Shown: piece after piece, positions 1 through 14,020 of the stretch | Numbering within the stretch: the first letter of the stretch is position 1 | Layout: the number at the start of each line of letters is the position of its first letter | Origin: a virus | Taxonomy: Duplodnaviria > Heunggongvirae > Uroviricota > Caudoviricetes | DNA length: 14,020 bases | Virus record (IMG/VR): IMGVR_UViG_2737471843_000003 | Location: 1 to 14,020 of that record | Reading direction: 5' to 3' (one strand) | The notes under the pieces: model-generated | Database searches by the model: none | Seen by the model: the letters and a program-made list of their open reading frames with translations, nothing else | Told to the model about the DNA's origin: nothing | Program-made: the position numbers and the translations under genes

Positions 1-342
1 ATGATGAAAAAAAGTATTCTGACGTTTCTGTTACTCACCAGTTCTGCAGCGGCGCTGGCTGCACCGCAGGTGATTACCGTCAGTCGTTTTGAAGTGGGTA
101 AAGACAAATGGGCGTTTAATCGCGAAGAGGTGATGCTGACTTGCAGACCGGGTAATGCTTTGTATGTCATTAACCCAAGTACCCTCGTGCAGTATCCTTT
201 AAACGATATCGCACAAAAGGAAGTTGCCAGTGGGAAGACTAAAGCCCAACCCATTTCGGTGATTCAGATTGATGATCCTAACAATCCCGGCGAAAAAATG
301 AGTCTGGCACCGTTTATAGAACGAGCTGAAAAACTCTGTTAA
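1..342 (+). CDS. yebY: Small secreted protein with N-terminal signal peptide, DUF2511/YebY-like
   Basis: ORF track 113 aa. The N-terminus [23 protein letters not shown] looks like a Sec signal peptide with an AxA cleavage site. I recognise the sequence as E. coli YebY from memory, not from a search. A hairpin plus T-run follows the stop. Confidence 0.6.
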
Positions 343-371
343 TTACCTAAAATAGCCTTTTGATTTCCAAT

Positions 372-413
372 AAAAAAACCGCCTCAGTTCTTTCACCAGA
401 ACGGGCGGTTTTT
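372..413. terminator. Rho-independent terminator downstream of yebY, A-run / GC stem / T-run, potentially bidirectional
   Basis: AAAAAAACCGCC at 372-383 pairs with GGCGG at 404-408, with an inner GTTC/GAAC pairing, followed by TTTTT at 409-413. The A-run on the other side would make it usable from the minus strand as well. Confidence 0.6.
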
Positions 414-469
414 AACATTTCAGCTGATGACCACCACGCTTTTTATTGACCATTTTGCACGCAAACTGG

Positions 470-500
470 AAAACCTGGCGTCGTCATCTATTCTTAAAGG
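470..500 (+). promoter_or_regulatory. Sigma-S-type promoter for sdsR
   Basis: A -10 element TATTCT at 489-494 preceded by C at 488 (the -13 C typical of sigma-S promoters), placed 6 nt upstream of the proposed SdsR 5' end at 501. No convincing -35 element. Confidence 0.45.
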
Positions 501-569
501 GCAAGGCAACTAAGCCTGCATTAATGCCAACTTTTAGCGCACGGCTCTCTCCCAAGAGCCATTTCCCTG

Positions 570-603
570 GACCGAATACAGGAATCGTATTCGGTCTTTT
601 TTT
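570..603 (+). terminator. Intrinsic terminator of SdsR
   Basis: GACCGAATAC (570-579), loop AGGAATC, GTATTCGGTC (587-596), then TTTTTTT (597-603). Read directly from the sequence. Confidence 0.75.
581..603. other. Putative attL core, the last ~23 bp of sdsR
   Basis: A tyrosine integrase gene ends 130 bp downstream. The terminal 23 bp of ryeB/sdsR has been reported as a recurrent phage attachment site in Salmonella and E. coli. The exact crossover cannot be determined from one junction. Confidence 0.4.
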
Positions 604-640
604 AATTGTATTTAAAATCAATTAGTTGCAAACGTCTCCC

Positions 641-670
641 CGAAATTACTCGAAATTTACTCGAATTTCT
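641..670 (+). repeat. Three tandem 10-11 bp direct repeats, candidate arm-type integrase binding sites
   Basis: CGAAATTACT (641-650), CGAAATTTACT (651-661), CGAATTTCT (662-670), read directly. They sit between the putative core and the int 3' end, like the P'1-P'3 arm sites of lambda attP. Confidence 0.4.
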
Positions 671-734
671 GTATTCCGGTCTTTTTTGGTTATATCACAA
701 CCAAAACACATTTAACAATCCATTTACGTTAAAA

Positions 735-1811
735 TCAGAGCAGTAAGTACGTTTTTTCTCTCTCATCAAGATACATTTTTGTTGTCTTCTCCGATGTGTG
801 GCCAAGTAGACGTTGAGCAAATTCTTCCCCACATGTTTCTTTGTACAATCGTCCAGCCAGGCTTCTGATCTCGTGAAAAGTTGGTGGGTTTTCACTGAAC
901 TGGATACCTGTTAATTTTCTGGCTGCGACAAATTTTTTTGTCAGGCCGTCCGGGTGAATGCTGCCGTCAGGGCTGTTTTTTCTAATCCCGGCACTGATTA
1001 GAAAATCTCCCCGGCTTACCAGGCGGCACCGTTCAACTACTGTACCAAGACGTAAACCAGCGACCGGAAGGCTGAGTGACAGGGGGATAGCAATCATCAT
1101 TCCTGTCTTAATTTGCCTGATGTGAAGACGATCATCATAAATATCACTGAACCGCATATTCGTTATGTCTTCGCGACGTTGTCCTGTTACAAGGGCTAAG
1201 TCCATAGCTAATGGGAACCATGCCGGAAGTTGATCTGCTGCCTCCCTGATGCAGTTGTATGTCTTTAGTTTCAGCCGTTCTCTTGTAACTACTATTTTCG
1301 GTGCTCTTGTTGGCGTTACTGGATTTTGAGATATACGCCCTTCAACAATGGCTTCGCGGAACATATCAGATAACACAGAACGCATTGATCCTGCCATCGT
1401 GTTTTTCCCTCCTTCAATCCACAAATCAAGAAACTCGGCAATATGGCGAGTGGTTATTTCTGTCAGTAAGATCCCTCCTAATTTTTCTTTTATTGTTTCC
1501 AGTTGATTTCCCCGAATTTTATAAGTATTTCTGGACACTTTTCTCCTTATAAGAATCGTTTTGTAACGTTCAATCCAGTCTGCCATAGTAAATGAGTCGA
1601 ACCCTTTAAGTTTTTCAATTAAGGCAGCAGGAGAGTAGTTTTTGTATATATAATGATTTGCTTCAATTGCCTGCGCGATTGCATCTCTTCTTGAAATTTT
1701 ACCTAGTGTAAATTCTTCTTTCGTAAGAGGGTTGCGCCAGTAATATGCTTTGTCCCTCCTTCGATATGTTAAGTTCCTAGGCAAATTGGGATCGTATTTT
1801 TTCCGCTGCAT
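735..1811 (-). CDS. int: Tyrosine recombinase, lambda Int-family integrase
   Basis: ORF track 358 aa. The N-terminus resembles the lambda Int arm-binding domain. The C-terminus carries the catalytic signature [11 protein letters not shown]...[15 protein letters not shown] (R, HxxR, Y). Its start overlaps the xis 3' end. Confidence 0.9.
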
Positions 1812-2058
1812 GTTTTAACTTCTCCAGTAACGGACTGTCTCTCCCTTGTCGCCCATTAGGCTGATGGTGTGTTATATCGGTATCAACCTTATTTGGGTTG
1901 ATATAGAAAGCCTCCGGAACCACCCTGTAACTCCTCCCGTGTAGTTCAGGTGCAGGATAAATGTTTCCATTCCTTGCCCATCGTCTCAGCGTTGATATTG
2001 ATGGTGGGTTATCCGGATATCTGAGTTTTCCCCACGTTTTGAGTGTCACAAGATTCAT
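1777..2058 (-). CDS. xis: Excisionase (Xis-like)
   Basis: The pattern VTLKTWGKL...STLRRWARNGNIYPAPELHGRSY resembles the lambda Xis winged helix. It overlaps int by 35 bp. I prefer the start at 2058 (AGAGG 7 nt upstream) over the track start at 2064. Confidence 0.7.
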   Translation of the reverse strand: MNLVTLKTWGKLRYPDNPPSISTLRRWARNGNIYPAPELHGRSYRVVPEAFYINPNKVDTDITHHQPNGRQGRDSPLLEKLKHAAEKIRSQFA

Positions 2059-2080
2059 TGCCATACCTCTTACGATATGA

Positions 2081-2109
2081 CCGCCAGTAAATATACAGAA
2101 TACTGGCGG
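2081..2109. promoter_or_regulatory. Perfect 9-bp inverted repeat upstream of xis
   Basis: CCGCCAGTA (2081-2089), 11-nt spacer, TACTGGCGG (2101-2109). It lies about 20 bp upstream of the xis ribosome-binding site with no adjacent T-run, so a protein-binding site or RNA hairpin is more likely than a terminator. Confidence 0.3.
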
Positions 2110-2164
2110 ACGTGATTGATTTTTAATAATCAGCTATGAAGTTATAATTTGGATATAATGCAAC

Positions 2165-2353
2165 TCACGAGGGCCGAAGTTTCTCGCAATTAAAATTTAT
2201 CAGCTTTACTTTCTGCTCTCTGGAAACGCCTGCTTCTTTTTTCCCCGAGAGCATTTTTTCGCATTCTGATTTAGTTAGTTTAGATTTTGAATATCTTGTC
2301 CAGTTAGTAGGAGTGCCACCTTCCTTTTCAATAGTGGCGGTAATTTTATACAT
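2165..2353 (-). CDS. Small hypothetical phage protein, 62 aa, at the Rac ydaC position
   Basis: In frame with track ORF 2165..2425. An internal ATG at 2353 is preceded by GGAGG with 5-nt spacing, and overlaps the lar stop by 8 bp. The family is not confidently recognised. Confidence 0.5.
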   Translation of the reverse strand: MYKITATIEKEGGTPTNWTRYSKSKLTKSECEKMLSGKKEAGVSREQKVKLINFNCEKLRPS

Positions 2354-2540
2354 GAACACCTCCATTATTATTTCCAGTGGTTCGTTTATTCCATCGTTCG
2401 AGTGCTTCTTTTTCACTTCCACCATAGCCGGTTCGGGATTCGCATCCGTTACACTTCGCGCGGTAATATCCTGAAATGGCTTTCACCGTTACTGATGGAC
2501 AACCACAAAAAGGGCATGGTTTGACTTTTTCATACCGCAT
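2346..2540 (-). CDS. ralR: Lar-family restriction alleviation protein (RalR-like)
   Basis: Track ORF 2346..2555. The CPFCG...CNGCE zinc-ribbon-like motif and ALERWNKR are typical of the Lar family. A start at 2540 gives 64 aa, the Rac RalR length as I recall it. Confidence 0.7.
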   Translation of the reverse strand: MRYEKVKPCPFCGCPSVTVKAISGYYRAKCNGCESRTGYGGSEKEALERWNKRTTGNNNGGVHV

Positions 2541-2603
2541 TGTCTTTTCTCTCATATAATAAAGTTTTGTGATGGCGGTGAGGCTACACCGCCAAAGTCA
2601 ATA

Positions 2604-3707
2604 TCAGGAGCCGATATATTCTGGTTTCATATCTGTCAGTGTCGTTTTATACGCCTCATATAATTCACCCAGATGTGGTCGTGCAGCATTCAGCGTATTT
2701 TCCAGAGCAGTAAATTTTTGTTCTGCTTCTGGATCACCTGATGAAGGCAGGTCATTTATCATCTTCTCGATACTGGCAATAGCATTGAGACGGTGATGAC
2801 GCCGAACCACTTTTCCTTTAAGCTCGGCAAAGAATTCGCCGATCTGGTTTTTCTGATCCTCTATCTCTTGGCGTAATGCAGTGGTTTCCTCAGTCGTGGC
2901 CGCGCTTTCTATACGCTGCCGGAATTCATCAATCCACGCTTCGTCAATACGCTGTTCGATGGTTTCTGTTCGCTGCTCGCTTACCTCGCTATAATTCTGT
3001 ACCGACACAGGATTGATGATTTTTTCCTGTGGCTCTTCCAGTTCGTCCGGGGTATACACGCCCAGGATGACGTCAGGACAATAAAGGCGAGCCCAGTATT
3101 TCAACGCCAGATAGGCGAGCTGTTGTTTCGGGTTTGAGGTCCATAAAGGAGAATTACGCGTAATCACGCTGGAAAGAAACACCGGTTCTCCCCAGGTAAT
3201 CTCACTTTCACCGCGAAGAACTGCACCAACTCGAACTGAGAGACCATACTCATCTTCACTGGTCCAACATGGGATCGTTTCTTTTTTCTCATAGATTCCG
3301 CCTCCTTTGGCCGTTTTCTTAACGATCTCCACTCGGGTGCGAGAGCATTTCTCCCAGTCTCCCTCGTACTTGTAATGGAAGCGACCTACAATTGCACTTG
3401 AGCTAGAGATCACAGCGTTAACCAGTTGTGCTTCATAACCCAGAACTCCGTTTACCAGGTGTGTTTTCTGAGCCACAGCGTAGGGGTTCATGCCCCATTG
3501 CATAGCTTGCATGATGATTGCCATGCAGTCGGCAGGATTTCCGCGAAGGTGATCGGGAACTGTGACGGTGGCCTGTGCCATCAACCCGGCTACTGCCTGA
3601 AGTTGCGTCAACGCCTGAACGTTAAAAATAGTGTTACTGGCAGAAATGGTATTTGGTGTCTGCTCTGTCGTGATGATATTGGTATTTTGCATGGTCAGGT
3701 TCTCCAT
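2604..3707 (-). CDS. Single-strand annealing protein, RecT/Redbeta superfamily, partner of RecE
   Basis: ORF track 367 aa. The core ADCMAIIMQAMQWGMNPY...VNGVLGYEAQLVNAV fits the RecT/Redbeta pattern. It sits immediately downstream of recE with a 1-nt stop/start overlap. It is clearly not the canonical 269-aa K-12 RecT sequence. An alternative start at 3692 has GGAG upstream. Confidence 0.7.
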   Translation of the reverse strand: MENLTMQNTNIITTEQTPNTISASNTIFNVQALTQLQAVAGLMAQATVTVPDHLRGNPADCMAIIMQAMQWGMNPYAVAQKTHLVNGVLGYEAQLVNAVISSSSAIVGRFHYKYEGDWEKCSRTRVEIVKKTAKGGGIYEKKETIPCWTSEDEYGLSVRVGAVLRGESEITWGEPVFLSSVITRNSPLWTSNPKQQLAYLALKYWARLYCPDVILGVYTPDELEEPQEKIINPVSVQNYSEVSEQRTETIEQRIDEAWIDEFRQRIESAATTEETTALRQEIEDQKNQIGEFFAELKGKVVRRHHRLNAIASIEKMINDLPSSGDPEAEQKFTALENTLNAARPHLGELYEAYKTTLTDMKPEYIGS

Positions 3708-6700
3708 TAAGCCAGATGCAGTGCTTCAAGACGACGAAGATCAAAGTCGTTTAATTCGTCGGTATAACTTTCGGTAATCGGTGCTGGCCAGTTGTTTGTC
3801 TCCAGGGCTTCGTTTATCTGGCGTAGCGTCCGGCGATATTCCTGTCGACCAAGTTCAAGGAGTTCCTGCGAGGCTTCCACGACTGCCACCCAGTGATAGC
3901 CAGCATCTTTGTTGACGAAGATCCAGAAAAATTTGTCCAGGTTTGCCACATCGCAATACATTGCGGCGCTGAGGTGATAATCACGCTCAATAATTTCACG
4001 GTGCAGGCGATCTTTAAGTCGTTCCTGCCGCACATAACCGAGGCTGACTGACTTCACGTCAGCGCAAATGCTTTCGTATGGCAGCCGGATTTCGATATCA
4101 GGACGGACCCTGATTTCCAGCCCGGTTTCTTCATCAAACCCGAAATAGCTGATTTCAGATTTGCGATCCGGGTGGTTGAGTAGCCTTGCTGCATCGGTAT
4201 TGTTTTGCAGTGCCGCGTGAATATTTTTTGCCTGTTCATACATATCCGGACTGATAAACGTTTTCCCGGCGTTTTCTTCTTGCTGGCGTTTTTGCCAGTC
4301 CTCCAGTGTCACCAGTTCCGGGCGAATTTTCCGTGCGATTTCGGTTAATTGCTCTTTTGTGCCACTGATGTTGTAAGGCAAAGATTTAGCACGTTCTTTT
4401 TTTGCCAGTTCTGGATCTACAGTTTCAATTTGATCCAGAAGCTGCTCCCGTGCTCCACTGGTTTTCAACAGAGGAGGGAGGCTTGCGTTGTATTCTTTAA
4501 TACAGGCTTTCATTGCTGATGCTGTGTGTTTTTCCCCCTCAGGAATACGCCGAAATTCCACCGGAAGCGAACCGTAAAGGATGCCTGTTTCTTCGGCCCC
4601 AGCACTTACAGACAGTGGCTGTATAAGAGTGCTGTTGTAGCTTTCGATCCACTCTTTCATCTGCTCTGGTGTCATCAGTGCTGGCAGACTGGCATTGTGT
4701 TTTTTAATGATGGCGATCAGTTCGTTAGAAGTAGTAACCACATATTCAGGAACCGGTACCGGAATGGCATATTCATCTGCGAATTTATCCGTTTCCAGAA
4801 CATAGCTGTGAATGATCCGCCCACGCAGCAGTGCGTCACTTTCCTCGTTCGGAATAGTTCCGGCAATGTGCCGCCCGTGGTAATACATCAGGCTGATACG
4901 GGCATCCTTCAGCATCGTGCTGCTTATTCCGTTGGCGGAGTGATAAACCTCGTTCGGGAGGTTTTCATAGCGGCCTGGCTCGAAATATGACGGCCACATG
5001 ATTTCAGTTGCTACAGGAGCTGACGCTTCGCCAGTTTCATCACTGCAATTGCGATGCGGATCGCTGTCAGCATTCTCATTGTGCTGATGTTCAGCGCCTT
5101 CCATTTCCTCCGGATCTTTTTCCAGAGATTCATCCAGATTTTCTTCATTAAATGTTTCCTGATACGTTGCGTCGCCCATCGCCGCGCCACAATCAGGGCA
5201 GTTGCCCCCACCGATCTGACCGCAGGCGGTGCAGACTTTTTCCGGTTCTTGTTGCTCTTCTGGTTCAGGCTGTTTCGTTTCTGGCTCGTTTTGTTGCGTA
5301 TTTGGGCTGTTTTGTTCCGCTTTCTTGTCGTTCTGTTCCGTTTCTTGCTGGTTCTGGTTCACAGAGTCGAGGGTTTCAATCCCCTTAACCCATTTCGGAT
5401 CGTTCGGGTCGCTAATCCCTTCAACAAATTCTCCGCGAGAGGCAGCCAGTAATTTGTCTGCATCGACAGGATTTTTGGGCGGAATGTTTTTCCGGGCTTC
5501 ATGGAGTTCTGCCCGCAGTTTCTGATATTTCGCATCAACAGAATTTACCTGTGACTGAGCATCCAGCGGCTGCGTGTTCTGATGATGTTCAGTTGCATTC
5601 GGTTCCACTGTTTCAGCCGTTGCCTGTTCATCTGCCATTGCGCCAGATGGTTGTGGTTTTTCTTCATCGTCCTGTTTTCCTTCTTCTGTTACTCGCTGCG
5701 GCATCGGGGCAGAGGAGCGACCGCAGGCAATATCCACGATTTCCGGATCAGGGTTGGCATGATCGGTTTCAGTCAGTACTTTGTTCAGATATTCAGTGAC
5801 GTGTGCGGGGATGACCTCGATCCCAATTGGTGCTTCTTTCACGGACGCAACCACGATGGCGCGGGAATAATCCAGCCCGCCAGGCATGGTGATGAATTTG
5901 TCGCGGAAAACAGAAAAGGGTGGTTTATTTTCAGCGATAATTTCCTCAATGCGTTTAGCGTGTGCCGGATGAAGGTTATAAATGTCCACGTCCATTGAAC
6001 GGGCCAGTACGCCAGTGGCTACATCGCGTGCCAGTGACGTCAGATCGTGGACGAAACCTTCGCCGCGATCGGTGAGGTTCCCGCCGCCAGCATTAGCACC
6101 GGAAGCCGTGCGAGTGATGCGTGAAACACGATTTCCTTTCATCCACTCTTTTGTCAGCAGACCGCGATCGGTGTAGTCTGCGTCCAGGTATGCTTCGAAA
6201 AAAGCAGTCATCAGCCCCAGACTTGAATTGCCTGGATTAGGGAAAACTTTGTCAGTATCACGAACCAGTCTGTGAAGATCGCGAATCTCCAGCGGGTCGA
6301 GCAGGCTGGTTTTGTGGGAAACAGCTAGGGCAGTAACAGCTGGTAGTTCTTCGGCCCGTGCAATATGTAATGTCTGGAGTTCGTCGCGTGAAACGTGCGT
6401 TACCGGTTTTTCGCTGCCGTGTTGAGCAAGCCAGCGAATGGGCAGCTCTTGGCCAGAAATCGGGAGTAGCATATTCTCCTCAATCTCAGTCATGTCTTCG
6501 CCATTAACATTGGTATTGTCAGTGCTGTCTGGTTTGTACTGCGCAGAGGATGAGGGCGCGATAAATACCATTGTGATGCCATCTTCCCCGCCTTTTTCGT
6601 AACGGTTGCAGAATTCCGTATCAAATACGCCTTCTGGTGGAAGGTCATCAACAACGGGCAAATTGACGCGAACAGGTTTTTTAAAGTCATCTTCATCGTA

Positions 6701-6856
6701 GCCAGCATCGTCAATCGCAACAGCACCACGGGAGATGGCAATGGATAATTTTTTCGCTTCAGCCCAGTAGAAACCGCCTTTAATACCGAGACGTTTTCTT
6801 ACTTTGTCATTTTTTGCTTCGTAATACAGTGGGTAAACTTGTTTATCGGTGCTCAT
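3707..6856 (-). CDS. recE: Exonuclease VIII (RecE-family 5'-3' dsDNA exonuclease)
   Basis: ORF track 1049 aa. The C-terminal domain carries PD-(D/E)xK-type residues (RPDIEIR...CADVKS) and long stretches I recognise as RecE-like. It is about 180 aa longer than the 866-aa K-12 RecE as I remember it. Confidence 0.85.
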
Positions 6857-6926
6857 TGTTTTTTAACCTCAACTCAGATTAAAATTACTGCGAGTGATGA
6901 ATAAATGTCCCTGGTTCTTCACTCAG

Positions 6927-6957
6927 GCCTGCACAGTGTGCAGGCTTTCTTTTTTTC
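6927..6957 (+). terminator. Perfect hairpin with T-run in the racC-recE intergenic region, terminator-like only on the plus strand
   Basis: GCCTGCACA (6927-6935), G, TGTGCAGGC (6937-6945), then TTTCTTTTTTT. On the minus strand, which is the operon strand, the hairpin is preceded by an A-run and has no U-tail. Confidence 0.35.
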
Positions 6958-7231
6958 AGATTTCACCTTTTAATTTCATTGCAATCAGAGTTGCCAGAAA
7001 TTCGGCTTTTTTTTCTGCGGGCAGATTCTTTCCTATGTGCACCAGACACATTTTTTTAACACCATCGTTAAGTGTTTTAACGTTGCCTGATGGACCGTCG
7101 ATATCAACCACAGTGAATGGGGTTTCTTTATTTTCTGTCTTAATCACGTAGCCAATACGCTTTCCTTCCAGGCTGACTTCGTGAACAATGTCATCGGTAG
7201 TTACAACAGTGGCTTCATAACTGGTAATCAT
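6956..7231 (-). CDS. racC: RacC-like protein, 91 aa
   Basis: Track ORF 6956..7279. The ATG at 7231 is preceded by AAGGAG with 6-nt spacing and gives 91 aa beginning MITSYEATVVTTDD, recognised as Rac RacC. Confidence 0.75.
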   Translation of the reverse strand: MITSYEATVVTTDDIVHEVSLEGKRIGYVIKTENKETPFTVVDIDGPSGNVKTLNDGVKKMCLVHIGKNLPAEKKAEFLATLIAMKLKGEI

Positions 7232-7305
7232 GTTTTTCTCCTTAATTAAGGTTGAGCGAATCTCTGCCATTTCTGGCATAAATTCAGTTTCGAATAGTCA
7301 ATTAA

Positions 7306-7476
7306 TTAAAGTTCGTGTGCCATCTGGTCTTTTTCGGCACAGATTTCACTACAATATTTTTTCATTTCCGTCGTTGGTATAACTCCACGCATGAAATGAA
7401 GTGGTCTTGTAATGATTTTGCTTTCTTCAATTTCTTTATTGCAAAGGTGATAAGCACATTTTATTTTCTTAGTCAT
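7306..7476 (-). CDS. ydaE: Small Cys-rich protein, 56 aa, YdaE-like
   Basis: Not in the ORF track because it is under 60 aa. Hand translation gives [56 protein letters not shown]. Its ATG overlaps the kilR TGA stop (ATGA). Its size and position match Rac ydaE. Confidence 0.6.
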   Translation of the reverse strand: MTKKIKCAYHLCNKEIEESKIITRPLHFMRGVIPTTEMKKYCSEICAEKDQMAHEL

Positions 7477-7697
7477 CACCATGACTCCGCCTTTACAGGT
7501 AAACCATCACGACCGAGGAAGACTTTAATCATGCGGTCAGTAATGCATGTTTTTGTGGTCAGGTTACGAATATAAAGTTTTCGCTTTTTAATATTGTTTG
7601 CCGAGGCGATATATGTCCGACCTTCATGAAGAACATAATCGCCAGGAGTCACACACTGACGTGGTATTTCATCAGTTCCGAAGTGATGAGCAATCAT
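7476..7697 (-). CDS. kilR: KilR-like cell-division inhibitor, 73 aa
   Basis: Track ORF 7476..7709. The ATG at 7697 is preceded by GGAG and gives a 73-aa protein beginning [15 protein letters not shown], recognised as Rac KilR. Confidence 0.75.
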
Positions 7698-8106
7698 AAT
7701 TATCTCCATTTTTACAAATGAATTTTGTCGATGCGGTGCCTGGTGCCTCCAGGTGACGTTAACCAGTTAACAATTAACGCCGGATATTTCACCCATAACT
7801 CTGCTACGAAGGACAATAGCTTTTTAACTGTTCCGCGTGCGCTTAGCCGCATTCACCGCATCACAAAATTCACTTTAAAAAGGGGCGGCAGGGCAGCCAC
7901 GGAGTAGAACTGATGCCGCCAAAGACTACACACAGCAATGTCGTTATTTACAACCGGAGGCGCACTCCCACCATTTAAATTTAACAGACAAAACCGACTC
8001 TTTATGAATACCGGAAATGCGCCTTCGTGTTGTGCGCCTGTCTTTTTACCACTTCAGGCTCGGTGGTATACTGGAGTTCTCACACAACCAGTAATAAGGT
8101 ATTCCT

Positions 8107-8301
8107 ATGGATAATAAAGACAAAGCCTGTCTACTTGCTTTAGCTTTCAGCATCAGATCGCAGCGAGAAACAACTCATCAATAATTTTTCTCGGAAATCG
8201 AGAATGCTGAGAATGAGTTTTTGTCACTACTCAATGAACGTGATGCTAAAAAAAGCGCCGATTCACTTAAGGCTTGGGCGAAACTAGGCTCTTCAAAATA
8301 A
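8107..8301 (+). pseudogene. Small ORF interrupted by an in-frame TAA: 25 codons, stop, 38 codons
   Basis: ATG at 8107 gives MDNKDKACLLALAFSIRSQRETTHQ, TAA at 8182-8184, then in the same frame FFSEIENAENEFLSLLNERDAKKSADSLKAWAKLGSSK ending at TAA 8299-8301. An extended -10 (TGgTATACT, 8064-8072) lies upstream. Its 3' end overlaps the convergent 72-aa gene. Confidence 0.3.
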
Positions 8302-8485
8302 TTGCTTCTGTAGCGGCATGAACAACTGTTTTTGCCGCCTCTTCAACTTCCTTGTCTGGACGACCAGCCTTTACTTTTTCTGCAATGACCTCCAGCACAG
8401 TTGGAAGAACCTTGCTAATAAGCATGGCTGCCACATCTTTGCTGCACAATTGACCGTTAATAACAACCAGATCTTCACCAACCAT
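8267..8485 (-). CDS. Hypothetical small protein, 72 aa
   Basis: Track ORF 8267..8542, whose first codon is TTG. The internal ATG at 8485 is preceded by AAGGGGA. It is the first gene downstream of the candidate pL-like promoter. Function unknown. Confidence 0.45.
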   Translation of the reverse strand: MVGEDLVVINGQLCSKDVAAMLISKVLPTVLEVIAEKVKAGRPDKEVEEAAKTVVHAATEAIILKSLVSPKP

Positions 8486-8660
8486 CTTTTTTCCCCTTAA
8501 CGCCGGGTGGCGGAACGTTTTATCTACTGCGCTTTGTATCAATCAACAACTGCCGTCATGTTCGTATGCCTCAGGCTGGCTACTTAGCCCTATTCAGTGG
8601 CTGGATAACTCGAGGTATTGTCCTGCCGTTCTCTGGTGGGGCGTTGTTTGGATATGGCAA

Positions 8661-8689
8661 ATGCTCACATATCGTGAGTGTTTTGTCAA
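8661..8689 (-). promoter_or_regulatory. Candidate pL-like leftward promoter with an operator palindrome in its spacer
   Basis: On the minus strand: TTGACA (plus 8684-8689), 17-bp spacer, GAGCAT (plus 8661-8666, weak -10 with TG upstream). The perfect palindrome CTCAC-N5-GTGAG at 8664-8678 overlaps the spacer and -10 and matches the operator motif found between the repressor and ydaS. Confidence 0.4.
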
Positions 8690-8730
8690 CTCAATATGTG
8701 AACAATGTTGCTTTTGGATTTTTGATGGAC

Positions 8731-8765
8731 AAAAAAAAGCCCTCGCTAATAGCGAGAGCTTTTTG
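8731..8765. terminator. Rho-independent terminator downstream of the repressor gene, bidirectional shape
   Basis: A8 (8731-8738), GCCCTCGCT (8739-8747), loop AAT, AGCGAGAGC (8751-8759), then TTTTT. One mismatch in the stem. Confidence 0.6.
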
Positions 8766-8790
8766 ATTGGAATCGAGGGAGATTAAAGGC

Positions 8791-9180
8791 TTAGGAGGAT
8801 TTTTTCTGTTGCCTGCTTCTTAGATATTTTTCCACATACTCATCAAGCTCTTGAAGACGGATTTCGAACAGATCAATCATGCGTGCTTGTTCCGATCCTG
8901 GGAGCTGATTAAACAGTTCTAGCATTTTTTTCTGGTTATCATTTAACCACGAGTAAGTGTTTTCCTGTTCACCGAACATTAATTCTGCGGGGGAAATGCC
9001 TAGTACCTGGCCGAGGATGATCGCATCCTCAGCCCCCACACTCCTGGTGCCAGCTTCGTAGTTAGCAATACGAGAAGAACCTGACCAACCACATAGTTTT
9101 GCCAGGTTTCCCATACTTAATCCTCGATTTAGGCGAGTGGCTTTTAGTCGCTCGCCTATTTGTTCTGCAATGGTTTTCAT
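8791..9180 (-). CDS. XRE-family HTH prophage repressor (cI/RacR-like), 129 aa
   Basis: Track ORF 8791..9285. The HTH region is LSMGNLAKLCGWSGSSRIANYEAGTRSVGAEDAIILGQVLGISPAEL. I prefer the ATG at 9180; the track start at 9285 is a TTG that would overlap the ydaS start. The gene is divergent from the Cro-like gene. Confidence 0.8.
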   Translation of the reverse strand: MKTIAEQIGERLKATRLNRGLSMGNLAKLCGWSGSSRIANYEAGTRSVGAEDAIILGQVLGISPAELMFGEQENTYSWLNDNQKKMLELFNQLPGSEQARMIDLFEIRLQELDEYVEKYLRSRQQKKSS

Positions 9181-9274
9181 AGCTCCGATTTTATCACGAT
9201 GTGTGAAATTAGCGGTACTCACATATCTGTAGTTGATCTTGCTCACGAAATGTGAATAATAGAAACAGGAGGTA
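9181..9274. promoter_or_regulatory. Divergent promoter/operator region with three operator-like sites at ~24-bp spacing
   Basis: TCACGATGTGTGA (9194-9206), CTCACATATCTGTAG (9218-9232, half-site match) and TCACGAAATGTGA (9243-9255). Rightward promoter: TTGATC (9233-9238), 16 bp, AATAAT (9255-9260). Leftward -10 TAAAAT (plus 9188-9193) sits 7 nt from the repressor ATG. Confidence 0.6.
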
Positions 9275-9277
9275 ATG

Positions 9278-9520
9278 ATGAACAAAATTTCAACATATCG
9301 AAAACAGCTTGGGCTGTCTCAAAGACAACTTGCTGTTCAGTTAGGGTGGATACAAAGCCGACTGGCAAATTACGAAGCAAATTTTCGTACCCCTGGGCTA
9401 GAGGAGTGCAGAAAAATTGTTTCTACCCTTAATCGGCTTGGCGCTCATTGTGGACTTGACGATGTATTCCCCCCAGACGGTAAGCATAGCGAAAACAGCA
9501 TAGGAGCGGTTGATTCATGA
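9278..9520 (+). CDS. ydaS: Cro-like HTH protein, YdaS-like
   Basis: Track ORF 9275..9520. AGGAGG at 9267-9272 favours the ATG at 9278. The HTH region is LGLSQRQLAVQLGWIQSRLANYE. It is the first gene of the rightward operon and its stop overlaps the ydaT start (ATGA). Confidence 0.7.
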   Translation: MNKISTYRKQLGLSQRQLAVQLGWIQSRLANYEANFRTPGLEECRKIVSTLNRLGAHCGLDDVFPPDGKHSENSIGAVDS

Positions 9521-9939
9521 AAATCAGGCATGAGCATATCGAATCAGTGTTGTTGGCCCTGGCAGCCGAAAAAGGGCAGGCGTGGGTCGCTAACGCAATT
9601 ACTGAAGAATATCTGCGCCAGGGGGGCGGCGAATTGCCCCTTGTACCAGGCAAGGACTGGAACAATCAGCAGAATATCTATCACCGTTGGTTGAAAGGTG
9701 AAACGAAAGCGCAAAGGGAAAAAATTCAGAAACTGATCCCTGCGGTTCTGGCAATTCTTCCGCGCGAGCTGCGTCACCGACTCTGCATCTTCGATACCCT
9801 GGAACGCCGTGCATTACTGGCGGCGCAGGAAGCGTTGAGTACGGCAATTGATGCGCATGATGATGCAGTCCAGGCCGTTTACCGGAAAGCACATTTCAGC
9901 GGTGGTGGGTCGCCCGGCGATTCTGTCGTAGTGCATTGA
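9517..9939 (+). CDS. ydaT: YdaT-like protein, 140 aa, reported as a toxic prophage protein
   Basis: ORF track 140 aa. I recognise the sequence MKIRHEHIESVLLALAAEKGQAWVANAITEEYLRQGGGELPL as Rac YdaT from memory. It is translationally coupled to ydaS. Confidence 0.75.
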   Translation: MKIRHEHIESVLLALAAEKGQAWVANAITEEYLRQGGGELPLVPGKDWNNQQNIYHRWLKGETKAQREKIQKLIPAVLAILPRELRHRLCIFDTLERRALLAAQEALSTAIDAHDDAVQAVYRKAHFSGGGSPGDSVVVH

Positions 9940-9983
9940 TTGAAATTAATCGTGCCGGATTGTTTTGTTCGGTATCAGTTAAA

Positions 9984-10004
9984 TGTAACGCTGCGAGCGT
10001 TACA
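9984..10004. promoter_or_regulatory. Perfect 21-bp palindrome 12 bp upstream of the ydaU-like start codon
   Basis: TGTAACGCT-GCG-AGCGTTACA with 9-bp perfect arms, read directly. The same core recurs inside the downstream gene. Confidence 0.45.
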
Positions 10005-10016
10005 AGGTGAAAACAA

Positions 10017-11153
10017 ATGGCTTCAAACTGGATAAAGCTCGAGGTTATTACGCCGGATAAGCCGGAAATATTCAGGCTTGCTGAGATTCTGAATATTGAT
10101 CCAGATGCCGCATTAGGGAAGGTTATTCGCTTCTGGGCATGGGCGGATCAACAAATGATAGACGGTAATGCAGATTGTAACGCTCGCGGCGTTACAAAAA
10201 GTGCAATAGATCGCATCACTTTTATGGCTGGTTTTGCTGATGCGTTAATTCAGGTTGGATGGCTGGTCGAAAATGACGGTGGGCTTTCTCTACCTAACTT
10301 TGAACGTCATAACGGAAAAAGCTCTAAAAAACGGGCGGTTACAAACGAGCGAGTTACAAAAATACGCGAACTGAAACGAAAAGGTAACGCTGGCAGCGTT
10401 ACACAAACGGATCAAAAAGCGTTACCAGAGGAAGAGGAAGAGGAAGAGGAAGATCTAAATACTGATCTAACCCATCCCAAACCCTTCCCTTCCGGAAGGG
10501 AGTTTCGGGATTTTGTGGCTGGAGTGCTTGAGGGGAGATTATCTGGCGGTACTGCAGCGGAATTTTGTAATTCTGCGGTGGTGGCGTTGCAGGCCGCTGG
10601 CCTGGATGTCTGTCGTGAGTATCCGGTACCAGAGCGTGGAGACGGTTGCGGAGGTCGGATTGATATCGTCGTGACTGACAGGAACGGTGTCCGGTGTGGG
10701 ATCGAACTTGACCGAAATTCTCCACGACAAAAATCACTGCTCAAAATCGGCGCTGTTGAAACCGGGATATGTGTCTTGCGGCGCAGTGATATCGCAAGGC
10801 ACACCGAGCAGGGAATTCTGGTTATCGGTGGGGCTGTTCGCCAGAAAAAATTTGACCCGTTGTCAGTTGATCTGCCCGACTGGTTGCCAGAAACACTCTG
10901 GCATGAGTGGGTCCAGTTCAGGCAGGCATTGCGAAAACCGATTCGAACGGAGCAGGGCGCTAACGGGGCGATACGGGAACTGGAAAAATTCCGTCAGCAG
11001 GGGTTTACACCTGAGCAGGTGATTCGACACAGCATCGCCAATGAATACCAGGGCCTGTTCGCGCCGAAAGGTGTTCGGCCTGAGACGTTGCTCCGACAGG
11101 TTAACACCGTCTCGTTGCCGGACAGTGCGATCCCGCCAGGCTTCAGGGGGTAA
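10017..11153 (+). CDS. ydaU: Replication initiator / replisome organiser, YdaU-like, with a poly-Glu linker and an extra central domain
   Basis: ORF track 378 aa. The N-terminus MASNWIKLEVITPDKPEIFRLAEILNID...VIRFWAWADQQ resembles the DUF1376 N-terminal pattern of lambdoid initiators. It sits just upstream of the DnaC-like gene. It is longer than the 285-aa K-12 YdaU as I recall it. Confidence 0.75.
   Translation: MASNWIKLEVITPDKPEIFRLAEILNIDPDAALGKVIRFWAWADQQMIDGNADCNARGVTKSAIDRITFMAGFADALIQVGWLVENDGGLSLPNFERHNGKSSKKRAVTNERVTKIRELKRKGNAGSVTQTDQKALPEEEEEEEEDLNTDLTHPKPFPSGREFRDFVAGVLEGRLSGGTAAEFCNSAVVALQAAGLDVCREYPVPERGDGCGGRIDIVVTDRNGVRCGIELDRNSPRQKSLLKIGAVETGICVLRRSDIARHTEQGILVIGGAVRQKKFDPLSVDLPDWLPETLWHEWVQFRQALRKPIRTEQGANGAIRELEKFRQQGFTPEQVIRHSIANEYQGLFAPKGVRPETLLRQVNTVSLPDSAIPPGFRG
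10176..10425. repeat. Iteron-like array of GTTACA-core repeats inside the initiator gene, candidate ori
   Basis: TGTAACGCTCGCGGCGTTACA (10176-10196); direct GTTACAAA half-sites at 10338-10345 and 10353-10360; palindrome GTAACGCT-GGC-AGCGTTAC (10384-10402); half-site AGCGTTAC (10418-10425). A-rich stretches lie between them. Confidence 0.45.
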
Positions 11154-11159
11154 CAGACC

Positions 11160-11906
11160 ATGAAAAATATTGCGACAGGAGGCGTTCTGGAGCGTATCCG
11201 CAGACTGACCCCACCACATGTAACCGCCCCATTCAGAACGGTTGCGGAGTGGCGCGAGTGGCAACTTGCTGAAGGGCAGAAACGTTGCGAGGAGATCAAC
11301 CGCTTGAATCGTCAGTTGCGGGTGGAAAAAATCCTGAATCGCTCTGGCATCCAGCCGTTGCACCGCAAATGTTCGTTTGCGAATTACCAGGTGCAGAACG
11401 ACGGCCAGCGATACGCGTTAAGCCAAGCGAAATCCATCGCCGATGAACTGATGACCGGGTGTACAAATTTTGCGTTCAGCGGAAAACCTGGTACCGGGAA
11501 GAACCATTTAGCGGCAGCTATCGGGAATCGCCTGCTGAAAGACGGTCAGACAGTGATTGTGGTTACCGTGGCTGATGTTATGAGTGCCCTGCATGCCAGC
11601 TATGACGACGGGCAGTCAGGCGAAAAATTTTTGCGGGAACTGTGCGAAGTGGATCTGCTGGTTCTTGATGAAATTGGCATTCAGCGCGAGACGAAAAACG
11701 AGCAGGTGGTACTGCACCAGATTGTTGATCGCCGGACAGCGTCGATGCGCAGCGTGGGAATGCTGACAAACCTGAACTATGAGGCCATGAAAACATTGCT
11801 CGGCGAGCGGATTATGGATCGCATGACCATGAACGGCGGACGCTGGGTGAATTTTAACTGGGAGAGCTGGCGTCCGAATGTCGTCCAGCCAGGAATTGCG
11901 AAGTAA
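11160..11906 (+). CDS. ydaV: DnaC/IstB-like AAA+ helicase loader, YdaV-like
   Basis: ORF track 248 aa. Walker A motif [15 protein letters not shown] and Walker B LLVLDEIG are present. It lies immediately downstream of the initiator gene. Confidence 0.85.
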
Positions 11907-11928
11907 TTTTTACCGGGAGAAAAATTTA

Positions 11929-12690
11929 ATGGAGACTGTTTTTGACGCACTGAAAGCAATGGGAAAAGCCACATCCTTAGAACTTGCTGCGCGACTTGGT
12001 ATCAGTCGTGAAGAAGTGCTGAACGAACTATGGGAACTGAAAAAAGCTGGTTTCGTTGATAAAAGCGCGTACACCTGGCGTGTGGCTGATAACAACGTTC
12101 AGCAGGAACAGCCAGCGCCGGAAGAACAGCCGGAAGAAACCACCACGGCAACAGTAGCGAAAATCTCAGAGTGCGATTTAACCGCGACGATTGAACAACG
12201 CGGACCACAAACGGCGGATGAGCTGGCTGCGTTGTTCGGTACCACATCACGCAAAGTAGCTTCAACGCTGGCAATGGCAATCAGCAAGGGGCGTCTGATT
12301 CGCGTAAATCAGAACGGTAAATTTCGTTACTGCATACCGGGCGATAATTTACCAGCAGAGCCGAAAGCTGCATCGGTAACGGAAACTGATGGTAAGGCCT
12401 TTCCTCAGCCCGCAGGTGTTGCGTTACCAGTACAGGAAGCGGCAACACAGGAAGATATTAAAACAGAAACTGTGGCGGACATTGTGCAGTCGCTGCCATC
12501 GTTCACCGAAACGCGAGCGGATGACCTGATTTTACCATCGCTGCATATGGCAAACCGCGAACTGCGTCGGGCGAAAAGTCATGTCCAGAAGTGGGCGCGA
12601 GTCTGCGCCGCGCTGCGGGAGCTGAACAAGCACCGGGATATTGTTCGACAGATTACTGATTCTTCCCGCCGTGTTGTATCGGAAAAGTGA
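11929..12690 (+). CDS. Hypothetical phage protein with two winged-helix-like segments
   Basis: Track ORF 11878..12690. Two ATG starts are possible: 11878 (GGAGAG upstream, overlaps ydaV) and 11929 (GGGAGA upstream). The segments [30 protein letters not shown] and [30 protein letters not shown] look like winged-helix folds. Function unknown. Confidence 0.55.
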
Positions 12691-12705
12691 TTGCCGGAGG
12701 CACTT

Positions 12706-13128
12706 ATGGCAAAAGTATTTACACAAGAAGAGCGGGAAAAAATTAAAGGGCAGGTTGTTGAGCTAGTACGCCGGAGTGGGCGCGAGACGTTACGGCAACT
12801 GGAAGCCAAGACAGGTGCGACAAGATATCTGATGAGCGTTCTCGCCAGAGAGCTTGTTGCCAGTGGCGATGTATACAACTCTGGTTACGGGTTATTTCCG
12901 TCTGAACAGGCCCGTAAGGACTGGCAAAACGCCCGCAAAAAACTCTCCAGGGCAAAGGTGAAAAAAACGGTTGTGGTTGATCCTGACCTTATCTGGTCAT
13001 TACCAGACGGAGAAATACGCCGCTACGACAGGCGCCTGAATATAATCTGTCGCGAGTGCCGGAAGAGCGAAGCTATGCAGCGTGTACTGGCTTTCTATCA
13101 GGGTAATTTTCAGGAGGTAGCGCAGTGA
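12706..13128 (+). CDS. Hypothetical phage protein, 140 aa
   Basis: Track ORF 12691..13128, which begins with TTG. The ATG at 12706 is preceded by GGAGG with 5-nt spacing. Its stop overlaps the GTG start of the methyltransferase gene. Confidence 0.55.
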   Translation: MAKVFTQEEREKIKGQVVELVRRSGRETLRQLEAKTGATRYLMSVLARELVASGDVYNSGYGLFPSEQARKDWQNARKKLSRAKVKKTVVVDPDLIWSLPDGEIRRYDRRLNIICRECRKSEAMQRVLAFYQGNFQEVAQ

Positions 13129-13598
13129 GTGCACCGGCAACCATTCTTGATATGTGCTGTGGCAGTCGCATGTTCTGGTTCGATAAGAATGACGACCGGG
13201 CGATATTTAGCGATATCAGAAAGGAAGAGCACACATTGTGTGATGGACGACGCTTGATTATCAGTCCTGATCTGATAGCTGATTTTCGTGCACTACCATT
13301 TGCAGACGCATCTTTTTCGATGGTTATATTCGACCCTCCGCATCTTGAGCGTGTTGGTGATAACGCCTGGATGGGAAAGAAATATGGACGGCTGAATAAA
13401 GATACCTGGCGTGATGATTTGCGGCAGGGATTTAAAGAAGCCTTTCGTGTGTTGCGTCCATCCGGCGTTCTGATTTTTAAATGGAATGAAACGCAAATAC
13501 CTGTTCGCCAGATATTGATACTGACCGACAGAAAACCTGTTATCGGTCAACGAACAGGAAAAAACGATAAAACCCACTGGATTATTTTTATGAAATAG
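13125..13598 (+). CDS. Small SAM-dependent amino-methyltransferase, DPPH motif, RsmD/N6-adenine-MTase-like fold
   Basis: ORF track 157 aa. Motif I-like ILDMCCGSRMF and motif IV-like IFDPPH occur in the order typical of N6A/N4C/m2G amino-methyltransferases. The GTG start has AGGAGG 7 nt upstream. No target-recognition domain is evident. Confidence 0.65.
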   Translation: MSAPATILDMCCGSRMFWFDKNDDRAIFSDIRKEEHTLCDGRRLIISPDLIADFRALPFADASFSMVIFDPPHLERVGDNAWMGKKYGRLNKDTWRDDLRQGFKEAFRVLRPSGVLIFKWNETQIPVRQILILTDRKPVIGQRTGKNDKTHWIIFMK

Positions 13599-13744
13599 GC
13601 ATCCAGTGAGTAGGTTCGTAAGGTTACAGATACGTATATCTGAATAATTAAATTTAGTTCTGTAAATAAAATTTAATCCTTAATCGGAGGGATTTCTGCA
13701 CCCTCAAATCATCAGGAGGCCGCCCGAAAGGGCGGTAGTGAAAA

Positions 13745-14020
13745 ATGACTGAATTAACCAAAGAGCAATTAATCGAAGAGGCCAAATTAAAAATAGCGAT
13801 TGCGAAATGCCACCCCAATTCAGGGTTGGCACGAGTAGAGGGTGAGTTATTCAAAATTGCTCTGGCATCACTGGAGCAGAATGCACTATCGGGCAACTCT
13901 CCGCTTATTCCTGGTGAAGTGTTGTCCGCAATCCGGGAGGTTGCCAGGATTCGCGCCGATTTCGATGATTTTGACGGTGACAGGCGAGGTATCGGTGATT
14001 GTCTGGATGAGGCCGAGCAA
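13745..14020 (+). CDS. Hypothetical protein, 5' partial ORF running off the window end
   Basis: ATG at 13745 and an open frame to 14020 (92 codons, MTELTKEQLIEEAKLKIAIAK...). It is missing from the ORF track because it has no stop within the window. The upstream signal is weak. Confidence 0.45.
   Translation, partial: MTELTKEQLIEEAKLKIAIAKCHPNSGLARVEGELFKIALASLEQNALSGNSPLIPGEVLSAIREVARIRADFDDFDGDRRGIGDCLDEAEQ

Follow-up and report, generated by a model that had tools for sequence, protein, structure and literature searches.

Do three tightly packed genes behind a phage helicase loader form one functional system, or are they neighbours by mosaic exchange? The question is raised by a 14,020-nucleotide stretch of Caudoviricetes DNA (IMG/VR record IMGVR_UViG_2737471843_000003, positions 1 to 14,020; hereafter the window), which is a lambdoid prophage of Rac type inserted next to yebY. 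A first-pass annotation, made from the DNA letters alone, had described positions 11929-13598 as a three-gene block of a winged-helix protein, a small protein and an orphan methyltransferase, and had proposed an anti-restriction or, equally, a regulatory role. Our analysis indicates that these genes are not one system but a mosaic. A conserved Ren-like pair, consisting of a YdaW-type gene (gene A, 11929-12690, + strand, ATG start, 253 aa) and a LygF/DUF977 gene (gene B, 12706-13128, + strand, ATG start, 140 aa, pI 9.9), is followed by a separate cassette (gene C, 13125-13598, + strand, GTG start, 157 aa, pI 9.3) that is predicted to encode a minimal orphan amino-type S-adenosylmethionine (SAM) methyltransferase.

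The tight packing itself was borne out. The DnaC-like helicase loader ydaV (11160-11906, + strand; NF009043, E 1e-153; phrog_50) lies directly 5' of the three genes; its stop codon is 22 nt from the ATG of gene A, and the stop of gene A is 15 nt from the ATG of gene B. The last two genes do share a GTGA, read directly at 13125-13128 (+ strand), in which the TGA stop of gene B overlaps the GTG start of gene C by 4 nt. A Shine-Dalgarno sequence precedes each of the three starts (GGAGG for gene B, AGGAGG for gene C). For gene B the mechanical list of open reading frames (ORFs) has a TTG start at 12691; the ATG at 12706 is used here. Profile searches, which the first-pass annotation had proposed for all three proteins, returned PF07789 for gene A (E 7e-100), PF06163 for gene B (E 1e-29) and phrog_954 for gene C (E 4e-86). 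By these strong family matches the three are real genes, beyond chance, and their families are all already catalogued and common. Over 11100-14020 the sequence matches E. coli S163-2 at 95% identity, and RefSeq lists for that strain after ydaV, at the same lengths, a 'DUF1627 domain-containing protein', a 'DUF977 family protein' and a 'class I SAM-dependent methyltransferase'.

Gene neighbourhood of the methyltransferase

Neighbour statistics were compiled from 80 viral loci with relatives of gene C, the upstream gene being scored in 78 and the downstream gene in 67. The upstream neighbours belong to 45 sequence clusters and the downstream neighbours to 47. A DUF977-like gene, identified with jackhmmer and a Pfam scan, lies directly 5' of the gene C relative in 14 of the 78 loci. 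Conversely, where gene B proteins are 94-100% identical to the one described here, a methyltransferase comes next in 3 of 74 viral loci. Among 5426 complete E. coli genomes, gene C is present in 855, genes B and C are contiguous in 481 of these and all three genes are found together in 34; gene B occurs in 3982 and gene A in 1330. A copy of gene C in O157:H7, 97.5% identical, stands after yfdR and an unrelated ORF. Base composition also changes at the border between genes B and C, with a GC content of 0.50-0.52 in genes A and B and of 0.44 in gene C, and homology to phage records stops at the gene borders. Gene C is an independently mobile single-gene cassette. A block with a joint role is therefore not supported: genes A and B form a conserved pair, and gene C is an independent cassette that fills this slot in a minority of phages.

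Immediately behind DUF977 lies a hot slot at which phages exchange single-gene cassettes. At least 12 other cassettes were found in the slot after gene B, including genes for a 138-aa zinc-ribbon protein (24 loci), the epoxyqueuosine reductase QueH (11 loci) and a DUF4406 protein (3 loci). The active phage Rac-SA53 has a DUF4406 gene (rac19) at this place, again with a 4-nt overlap. The ORF that follows gene C in the window (13745-14020) recurs directly after DUF977 in five other loci. Several of the cassettes found after DUF977 encode enzymes related to nucleic-acid modification. Since a 4-nt start/stop overlap with the upstream gene is found in 42 of the 80 loci, whichever gene is upstream, the GTGA overlap reflects ordinary operon packing and is no mark of a partnership between genes B and C. 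We also considered gene B as the specificity partner of gene C as a general rule; this was ruled out by the neighbour statistics, the genome counts and the extensions of gene C relatives described below.

Motifs, conservation and fold of gene C

The order of motifs reported earlier for the methyltransferase, motif I and then DPPH, was found as described. Motif I is LDMCCGS at residues 8-14 (codons at 13146-13166, + strand), the SAM-binding loop after strand beta1, and the catalytic signature of motif IV is DPPH at residues 70-73 (codons at 13332-13343, + strand), of the type found in methyltransferases whose targets are exocyclic amino groups or amino groups of proteins. Across 60 relatives with 40-81% identity, D9, D30, R32, P48, D70-P-P-H73, E105, R108, W120 and P138 are invariant, and C12 and G13 of motif I are kept in at least 90%. 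Because the cofactor-site and catalytic residues do not vary over these relatives, gene C is predicted to be active; conservation of this kind down to 40% identity implies what is presumably a working enzyme under selection.

The AlphaFold2 model of gene C is one compact domain of 157 residues (pLDDT 94.8, pTM 0.89), in which motif I follows strand 7-9 and DPPH comes directly after strand 64-69 (beta4). In agreement with the earlier description, a target-recognition domain is absent, and the model leaves no room for anything beyond the single domain. The protein has the features of a class I (Rossmann-fold) SAM-dependent methyltransferase, namely seven strands in a Rossmann-like arrangement, a motif I rich in glycine behind beta1 and an acidic residue closing beta2, and, with motif IV directly after beta4, those of an amino-methyltransferase. 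Gene C can be assigned with high confidence as a minimal Rossmann amino-methyltransferase of this class, for which the PDB and literature searches found no characterised relative. An oddity of the model is the absence of helices ahead of residue 82. A loop with the conserved sequence 'SRMFWFDK' takes the place of helix A, and a beta-hairpin at residues 34-46 that of helix B. The sheet may thus lie open on one side, a possible hint at oligomerisation or at a partner.

At least 7480 relatives of gene C came out of a search of 5.8 billion proteins, and a full scan of 50%-identity representatives in public data grouped the family into 2086 clusters; 947 of the 5426 complete E. coli genomes carry a member. 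The family core is about 150 residues long. Extensions in longer relatives (200-318 aa) were examined as possible hidden recognition domains and rejected. Those at the N-terminus are unrelated to one another, and those at the C-terminus either have no family match or resemble read-through into a neighbouring gene (DUF551, DUF6291). A recurrent long form of 248-250 aa, found in Leclercia, Citrobacter, Klebsiella and metagenomes, has a conserved C-terminal tail of 88 aa with no Pfam match, and is either genuinely fused or the product of gene calls run together.

The YdaW-type and LygF genes

The first gene had been called a winged-helix protein, and this holds: HTH_20 and HTH_Crp_2 both match gene A at residues 4-46, each barely over its cut-off. 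The remainder of the protein is dominated by DUF1627 at residues 88-242 (PF07789, 331.6 bits against a cut-off of 28.1, profile positions 1-155), and the full protein belongs to phrog_630 (E 2e-131). Gene B had been described only as a small protein. At 140 aa it is indeed small, but it is itself a winged-helix protein of the DUF977 family (PF06163, 103.4 bits against a cut-off of 22.1) and has a motif in common with lambda Ren. The winged-helix fold of DUF977 has been assigned by profile methods (PMC2686095). The name LygF, by which gene B is known in phage records, is borrowed from a Salmonella marker locus and has no function attached to it.

Gene A consists of an extra winged helix joined to a DUF977-like module, and genes A and B are paralogues. 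This conclusion comes from an hhalign comparison that pairs residues 75-248 of gene A with the whole of gene B (probability 90%, E 1.6e-6), where the gene A profile is shallow (Neff 1.5) and the alignment leans mainly on the winged-helix part. The literature searched contained no statement that DUF1627 and DUF977 are paralogous. Genes A and B are a conserved pair: in every one of 76 close IMG/VR loci with room downstream, gene B comes after gene A, although all 76 are at least 92% identical and are not independent samples. The YdaW of the Rac prophage of E. coli K-12, a pseudogene in that strain, is of the same family and in the same position as gene A, which is intact here.

Gene B matches phrog_142, 'Ren-like exclusion protein', with an E value of 5e-48. 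It shares with lambda Ren, the protein through which lambda escapes Rex exclusion, a 20-aa C-terminal motif in which 12 of 20 residues (60%) are identical (E 4e-7). It also belongs to the same PHROG family as entries labelled 'Ren-like', and like Ren it stands directly after the helicase-loader gene (P in lambda). In contrast to gene B, Ren is only 96 aa long and has no Pfam match at all, DUF977 included, and beyond the C-terminal motif there is no significant similarity between them. By analogy, the YdaW and LygF pair probably serves in exclusion between phages, in host exclusion or in the control of replication. The similarity of gene B to Ren is the only lead to a role for the pair, and no function passes securely from Ren to gene B. 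A PADLOC scan of A and B for membership of defence systems gave weak helix-turn-helix similarities and nothing more. In the literature searched, no functional study of the families of genes A, B or C was found, and lygF appears there solely as the name of a Salmonella marker.

Which kind of methyltransferase

In Pfam, gene C matches only the generic families Methyltransf_11 and Methyltransf_25, and no NCBIfam model is reached over its cut-off. The phrog_954 match covers residues 5-157 and is labelled 'DNA methyltransferase', and there are full-length matches to the PADLOC models PDLC03288 (MTase_II, E 4e-73) and PDLC03730 (oMTase, E 5e-50), these PHROG and PADLOC labels being predictions or annotations. 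We assume that the MTase_II and oMTase models derive from REBASE entries, so that the family would be entered there as putative DNA methyltransferases.

Similarity to beta-class N6-adenine and N4-cytosine DNA methylases (PF01555; TTHA0409, 2zie) extends from motif IV to 'RVLxPGG-L', with 2zie at E 0.8, and weak, sub-threshold PF01555 matches were obtained for 18 of the 60 relatives (best E 1.2e-3). However, beta-class enzymes have motif I after motif IV with a recognition domain between them, whereas motif I is N-terminal in gene C and the recognition domain is missing. More generally, gene C has neither the recognition domain nor the match to PF01555, PF02086, PF02384 or PF05869 that characterises DNA amino-methyltransferases of the alpha, beta and gamma classes.

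The RNA m2G methyltransferases Trm11, TrmN/Trm14, RsmC and RsmD have D/NPPY/F as motif IV, which is of the type found in gene C. These THUMP- or Trm112-associated enzymes share the fold of gene C and are among its best structural matches. Gene C differs from them in having no THUMP or duplicated domain, in sequence matches that are not significant (E 0.3-1.5) and in a phage rather than a housekeeping setting. It matches neither PF01170 nor PF03602 and has no extra domain of the kind seen in Trm11, UPF0020 and RsmD proteins; one or two of the 60 relatives match these two models, with E values above 0.04. Foldseek placed generic and RNA methyltransferases (RRP8, Bud23, Trm11) at the top for the gene C model, with the DNA enzymes M.BceJIV and M.TaqI and a rotifer N4C enzyme no higher than rank 33. 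Matches in a viral structure library were a mixture. When the Protein Data Bank (PDB) was searched with gene C and a profile of the 60 sequences, the sole match below E 0.01 was the uncharacterised protein PH0226 (1ve3; profile E 1.7e-5).

A nuclease partner was also sought. The ORF that starts at 13745 (+ strand) runs off the end of the window at 14020; it has no family match in Pfam, and no search made identified a nuclease there. None appeared near gene C when eight genomes encoding an identical protein were mapped, and the neighbours of the relatives in the 80 viral loci include only one HNH-type and three MmcB-like genes. The earlier statement that no nuclease adjoins gene C is in line with these results, and the cognate endonuclease gene of a Type II restriction-modification system is absent from beside it. 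Computation can rank the substrate classes but not fix them: DNA comes out as the most likely, from its context and from precedent, with RNA a serious competitor.

Expression context and proposed role

In the eight genomes that encode the identical protein, gene C has the replication genes on one side and the Q antiterminator on the other, with Hok, RusA and DUF968 in its company. In this Rac-type lambdoid prophage, genes A, B and C open the accessory 'nin-like' segment behind the replication genes. A promoter and terminator scan of 11000-14020 found no sites above shuffled expectation. The nin-equivalent region of lambdoid phages is transcribed from the early rightward promoter. Because gene C occupies this position in the early rightward operon, we expect its product to appear while the phage replicates and to be missing from the lysogen. 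Experiments have shown such silence in the lysogen for the prophage enzyme M.EcoGII (PMC5778455).

We propose that the region of genes A, B and C would be transcribed with the early rightward operon in lytic growth or on induction, so that the gene C enzyme is produced while the phage genome replicates. The enzyme would then place methyl groups on adenine N6 or cytosine N4 of phage DNA with little sequence selectivity, and the methylated DNA may enjoy partial but broad protection from restriction in the next host. Taken as a whole, a Ren-like pair next to a separate minimal methyltransferase cassette acting in the lytic phase is the best explanation of the locus, at a probability of about 0.5. 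Its most specific part, that gene C methylates replicating phage DNA unselectively and so lowers restriction in the next host, is tentative and somewhat short of even odds. The basic character of the protein, the PHROG and PADLOC labels and the weak resemblance to PF01555 are consistent with DNA as the substrate.

There is precedent for such a role in non-specific prophage adenine methyltransferases, silent in lysogens, that are thought to defeat restriction, among them M.EcoGII (PMC5778455) and Hia5 (PMC3299994). M.EcoGII and M.EcoGI, from a prophage of E. coli O104:H4, and the Hia5/Hin1523/Nma1821 group resemble gene C in being prophage-borne orphans with no nuclease partner and with an amino-methyltransferase motif IV. 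In both groups the recognition region is poorly defined and sequence selectivity is correspondingly weak or absent, and M.EcoGII is presumed to be active in lytic growth, where it would blunt restriction (PMC5778455). The differences are also clear. M.EcoGII has 349 aa, compared with 157 in gene C; it is of the beta class and Hia5 is Dam-like, both belonging to recognised DNA-methylase families with DPPY and a retained DNA-binding or recognition region. In gene C, motif I precedes DPPH, there is no extra region and no DNA-methylase family model is reached.

Several observations weigh against this proposal. The lack of any match to a DNA-methylase model applies to both Pfam and NCBIfam. Motifs of the form (D/N)PP(Y/F/H) are also found in RNA m2G and m6A and in protein methyltransferases (PMC3299994), and those non-specific DNA methyltransferases that are known have about double the length of gene C and retain a DNA-binding region (PMC3299994, PMC5778455). 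Searches of the PDB and the literature found no member of the gene C family with measured activity. The O157:H7 copy of gene C is a pseudogene. Lastly, one prophage carries gene C together with a 350-aa PF01555 methylase, and the two would be partly redundant if both methylated DNA broadly; we consider that they are probably not redundant. This 350-aa methylase follows the Q gene in a locus with the identical 157-aa methyltransferase (L248 11662-12474, GCA_974490455.1). It is of the size of M.EcoGI and M.EcoGII.

A bolder form of the proposal, which we hold to be unlikely, is that gene C is the smallest self-sufficient nucleic-acid amino-methyltransferase known. It would be a Rossmann core stripped down to a portable anti-restriction cassette that acts on DNA, or on DNA and RNA, with almost no sequence preference, or else one that needs an unrecognised small partner in the manner of Trm112.

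Alternative explanations

The most serious of the alternatives, though still an unlikely one, is that gene C methylates RNA. As an enzyme forming, for example, m2G, m6A or m4C in host tRNA or rRNA, it could tune translation or shield tRNA and rRNA from nucleases of the host or of rival phages. The gene C profile touches Trm11, RsmD (2ift) and the UPF0020 m4(2)C synthase in the PDB, at the non-significant E values of 0.3-1.5; one E. coli homologue is named 'TRM11 family' in RefSeq; and QueH, a tRNA-queuosine enzyme, holds the same slot in 11 of the 74 related loci. On the other hand, gene C is without a THUMP, PUA or other RNA-binding domain and reaches no RNA-methyltransferase family model, and both PHROG and PADLOC label its family as DNA methyltransferase. 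The prominence of RNA enzymes among the structural matches tells us little, since scores are nearly equal across methyltransferase classes and the rankings follow core size. Methylation of a protein amino group or of a small molecule is distinctly less probable; a host factor and a defence signalling nucleotide would be examples of such targets. Gene C would in that case be a host-takeover or anti-defence enzyme. Its generic Methyltransf_11 match is compatible with such a substrate, but the invariant DPPH is normally missing from Methyltransf_11 enzymes; moreover, the protein is basic and encoded among DNA and replication accessory genes, and no specific family match was found.

We give equally little credence to gene B as the DNA-recognition subunit of gene C, the two forming a translationally coupled, sequence-specific methyltransferase. 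The GTGA overlap, the missing recognition domain of gene C and the basic winged-helix nature of gene B fit this idea, as do the presence of DUF977 directly 5' of the identical gene C protein in eight of eight genomic places and the contiguity of both genes in 481 of the 855 E. coli genomes with gene C. It also fits that several top fold neighbours, among them Bud23, Trm11, Trm9 and KMT9, depend on the small activating partner Trm112. However, relatives of gene C at 60-85% identity stand behind 45 upstream families, with the DUF977-like gene in the small share of loci given above, and the nearly identical O157:H7 copy follows an unrelated gene. Gene B, for its part, occurs at 94-100% identity without gene C in 71 of the 74 viral loci and in about 3500 E. 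coli genomes. The overlap is generic, and the extensions of longer gene C relatives are not DUF977. Finally, orphan methyltransferases can regulate genes, and gene C might be an epigenetic regulator expressed in the lysogen, as the first-pass annotation had allowed; this we regard as highly improbable. We found nothing in its favour at this locus: no promoter-like site lies in or before genes A, B and C, which sit in a repressed early operon, and an enzyme without a recognition domain is unlikely to mark specific sites. Furthermore, methylome studies of E. coli lysogens report no motif left unexplained that would come from silent methyltransferases of prophages (PMC6602927, PMC5778455).

Prophage setting

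The prophage is ordered as integrase, excisionase, Lar/RalR with the RalA small RNA (sRNA), RecT, RecE, KilR and DicF, then the repressor and Cro-like pair, YdaT, the YdaU-type initiator and the loader YdaV. The restriction-alleviation protein Lar/RalR had been placed at the opposite end of the prophage from gene C, and it is found there at 2346-2555 on the - strand (PF14354, E 4e-14, 53 bits against a cut-off of 28.6). Any link between Lar and gene C is circumstantial only. The RalA sRNA (2169-2347, + strand; RF02694, 221 bits) adjoins the Lar/RalR ORF, so that Lar is here also the toxin of the RalR/RalA type I toxin-antitoxin pair.

Other features of the window were recorded. The sRNA genes SraC/RyeA and SdsR/RyeB lie at 463-607, on both strands, between yebY and the integrase, and a copy of the DicF sRNA is found at 7883-7934 (- strand) in the early-left region. 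The YdaU-type initiator (10017-11153, + strand) contains nine glutamates and then one aspartate in a row, and this glutamate run separates an N-terminal replication-initiator part from a C-terminal part that resembles DnaT. E. coli S163-2 has this initiator gene broken into two pseudogene fragments. Downstream of gene C, a strong hairpin with a GNRA loop (CCGCCC-GAAA-GGGCGG, 13720-13735) is located between an AGGAGG (13714-13719) and the ATG at 13745 of the following gene. Folding of this hairpin would set the AGGAGG at normal spacing from the ATG; the local fold z-score is only -2.05.

Significance

In conclusion, what appears to be a three-gene block in this prophage is a mosaic adjacency, and the practical value of that result is modest. 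The residual interest lies in gene C, a very common, very small and uncharacterised methyltransferase with a reduced fold, which is found in about one-sixth of E. coli genomes and in many temperate phages of enterobacteria. If it does prove to be a non-specific DNA or RNA methyltransferase of half the usual size, it would be of interest to those who employ M.EcoGII or Hia5 for footprinting, and it would add one more widespread device to the means by which phages counter restriction. If the substrate is instead RNA or protein, gene C would represent a new type of phage host-takeover enzyme.

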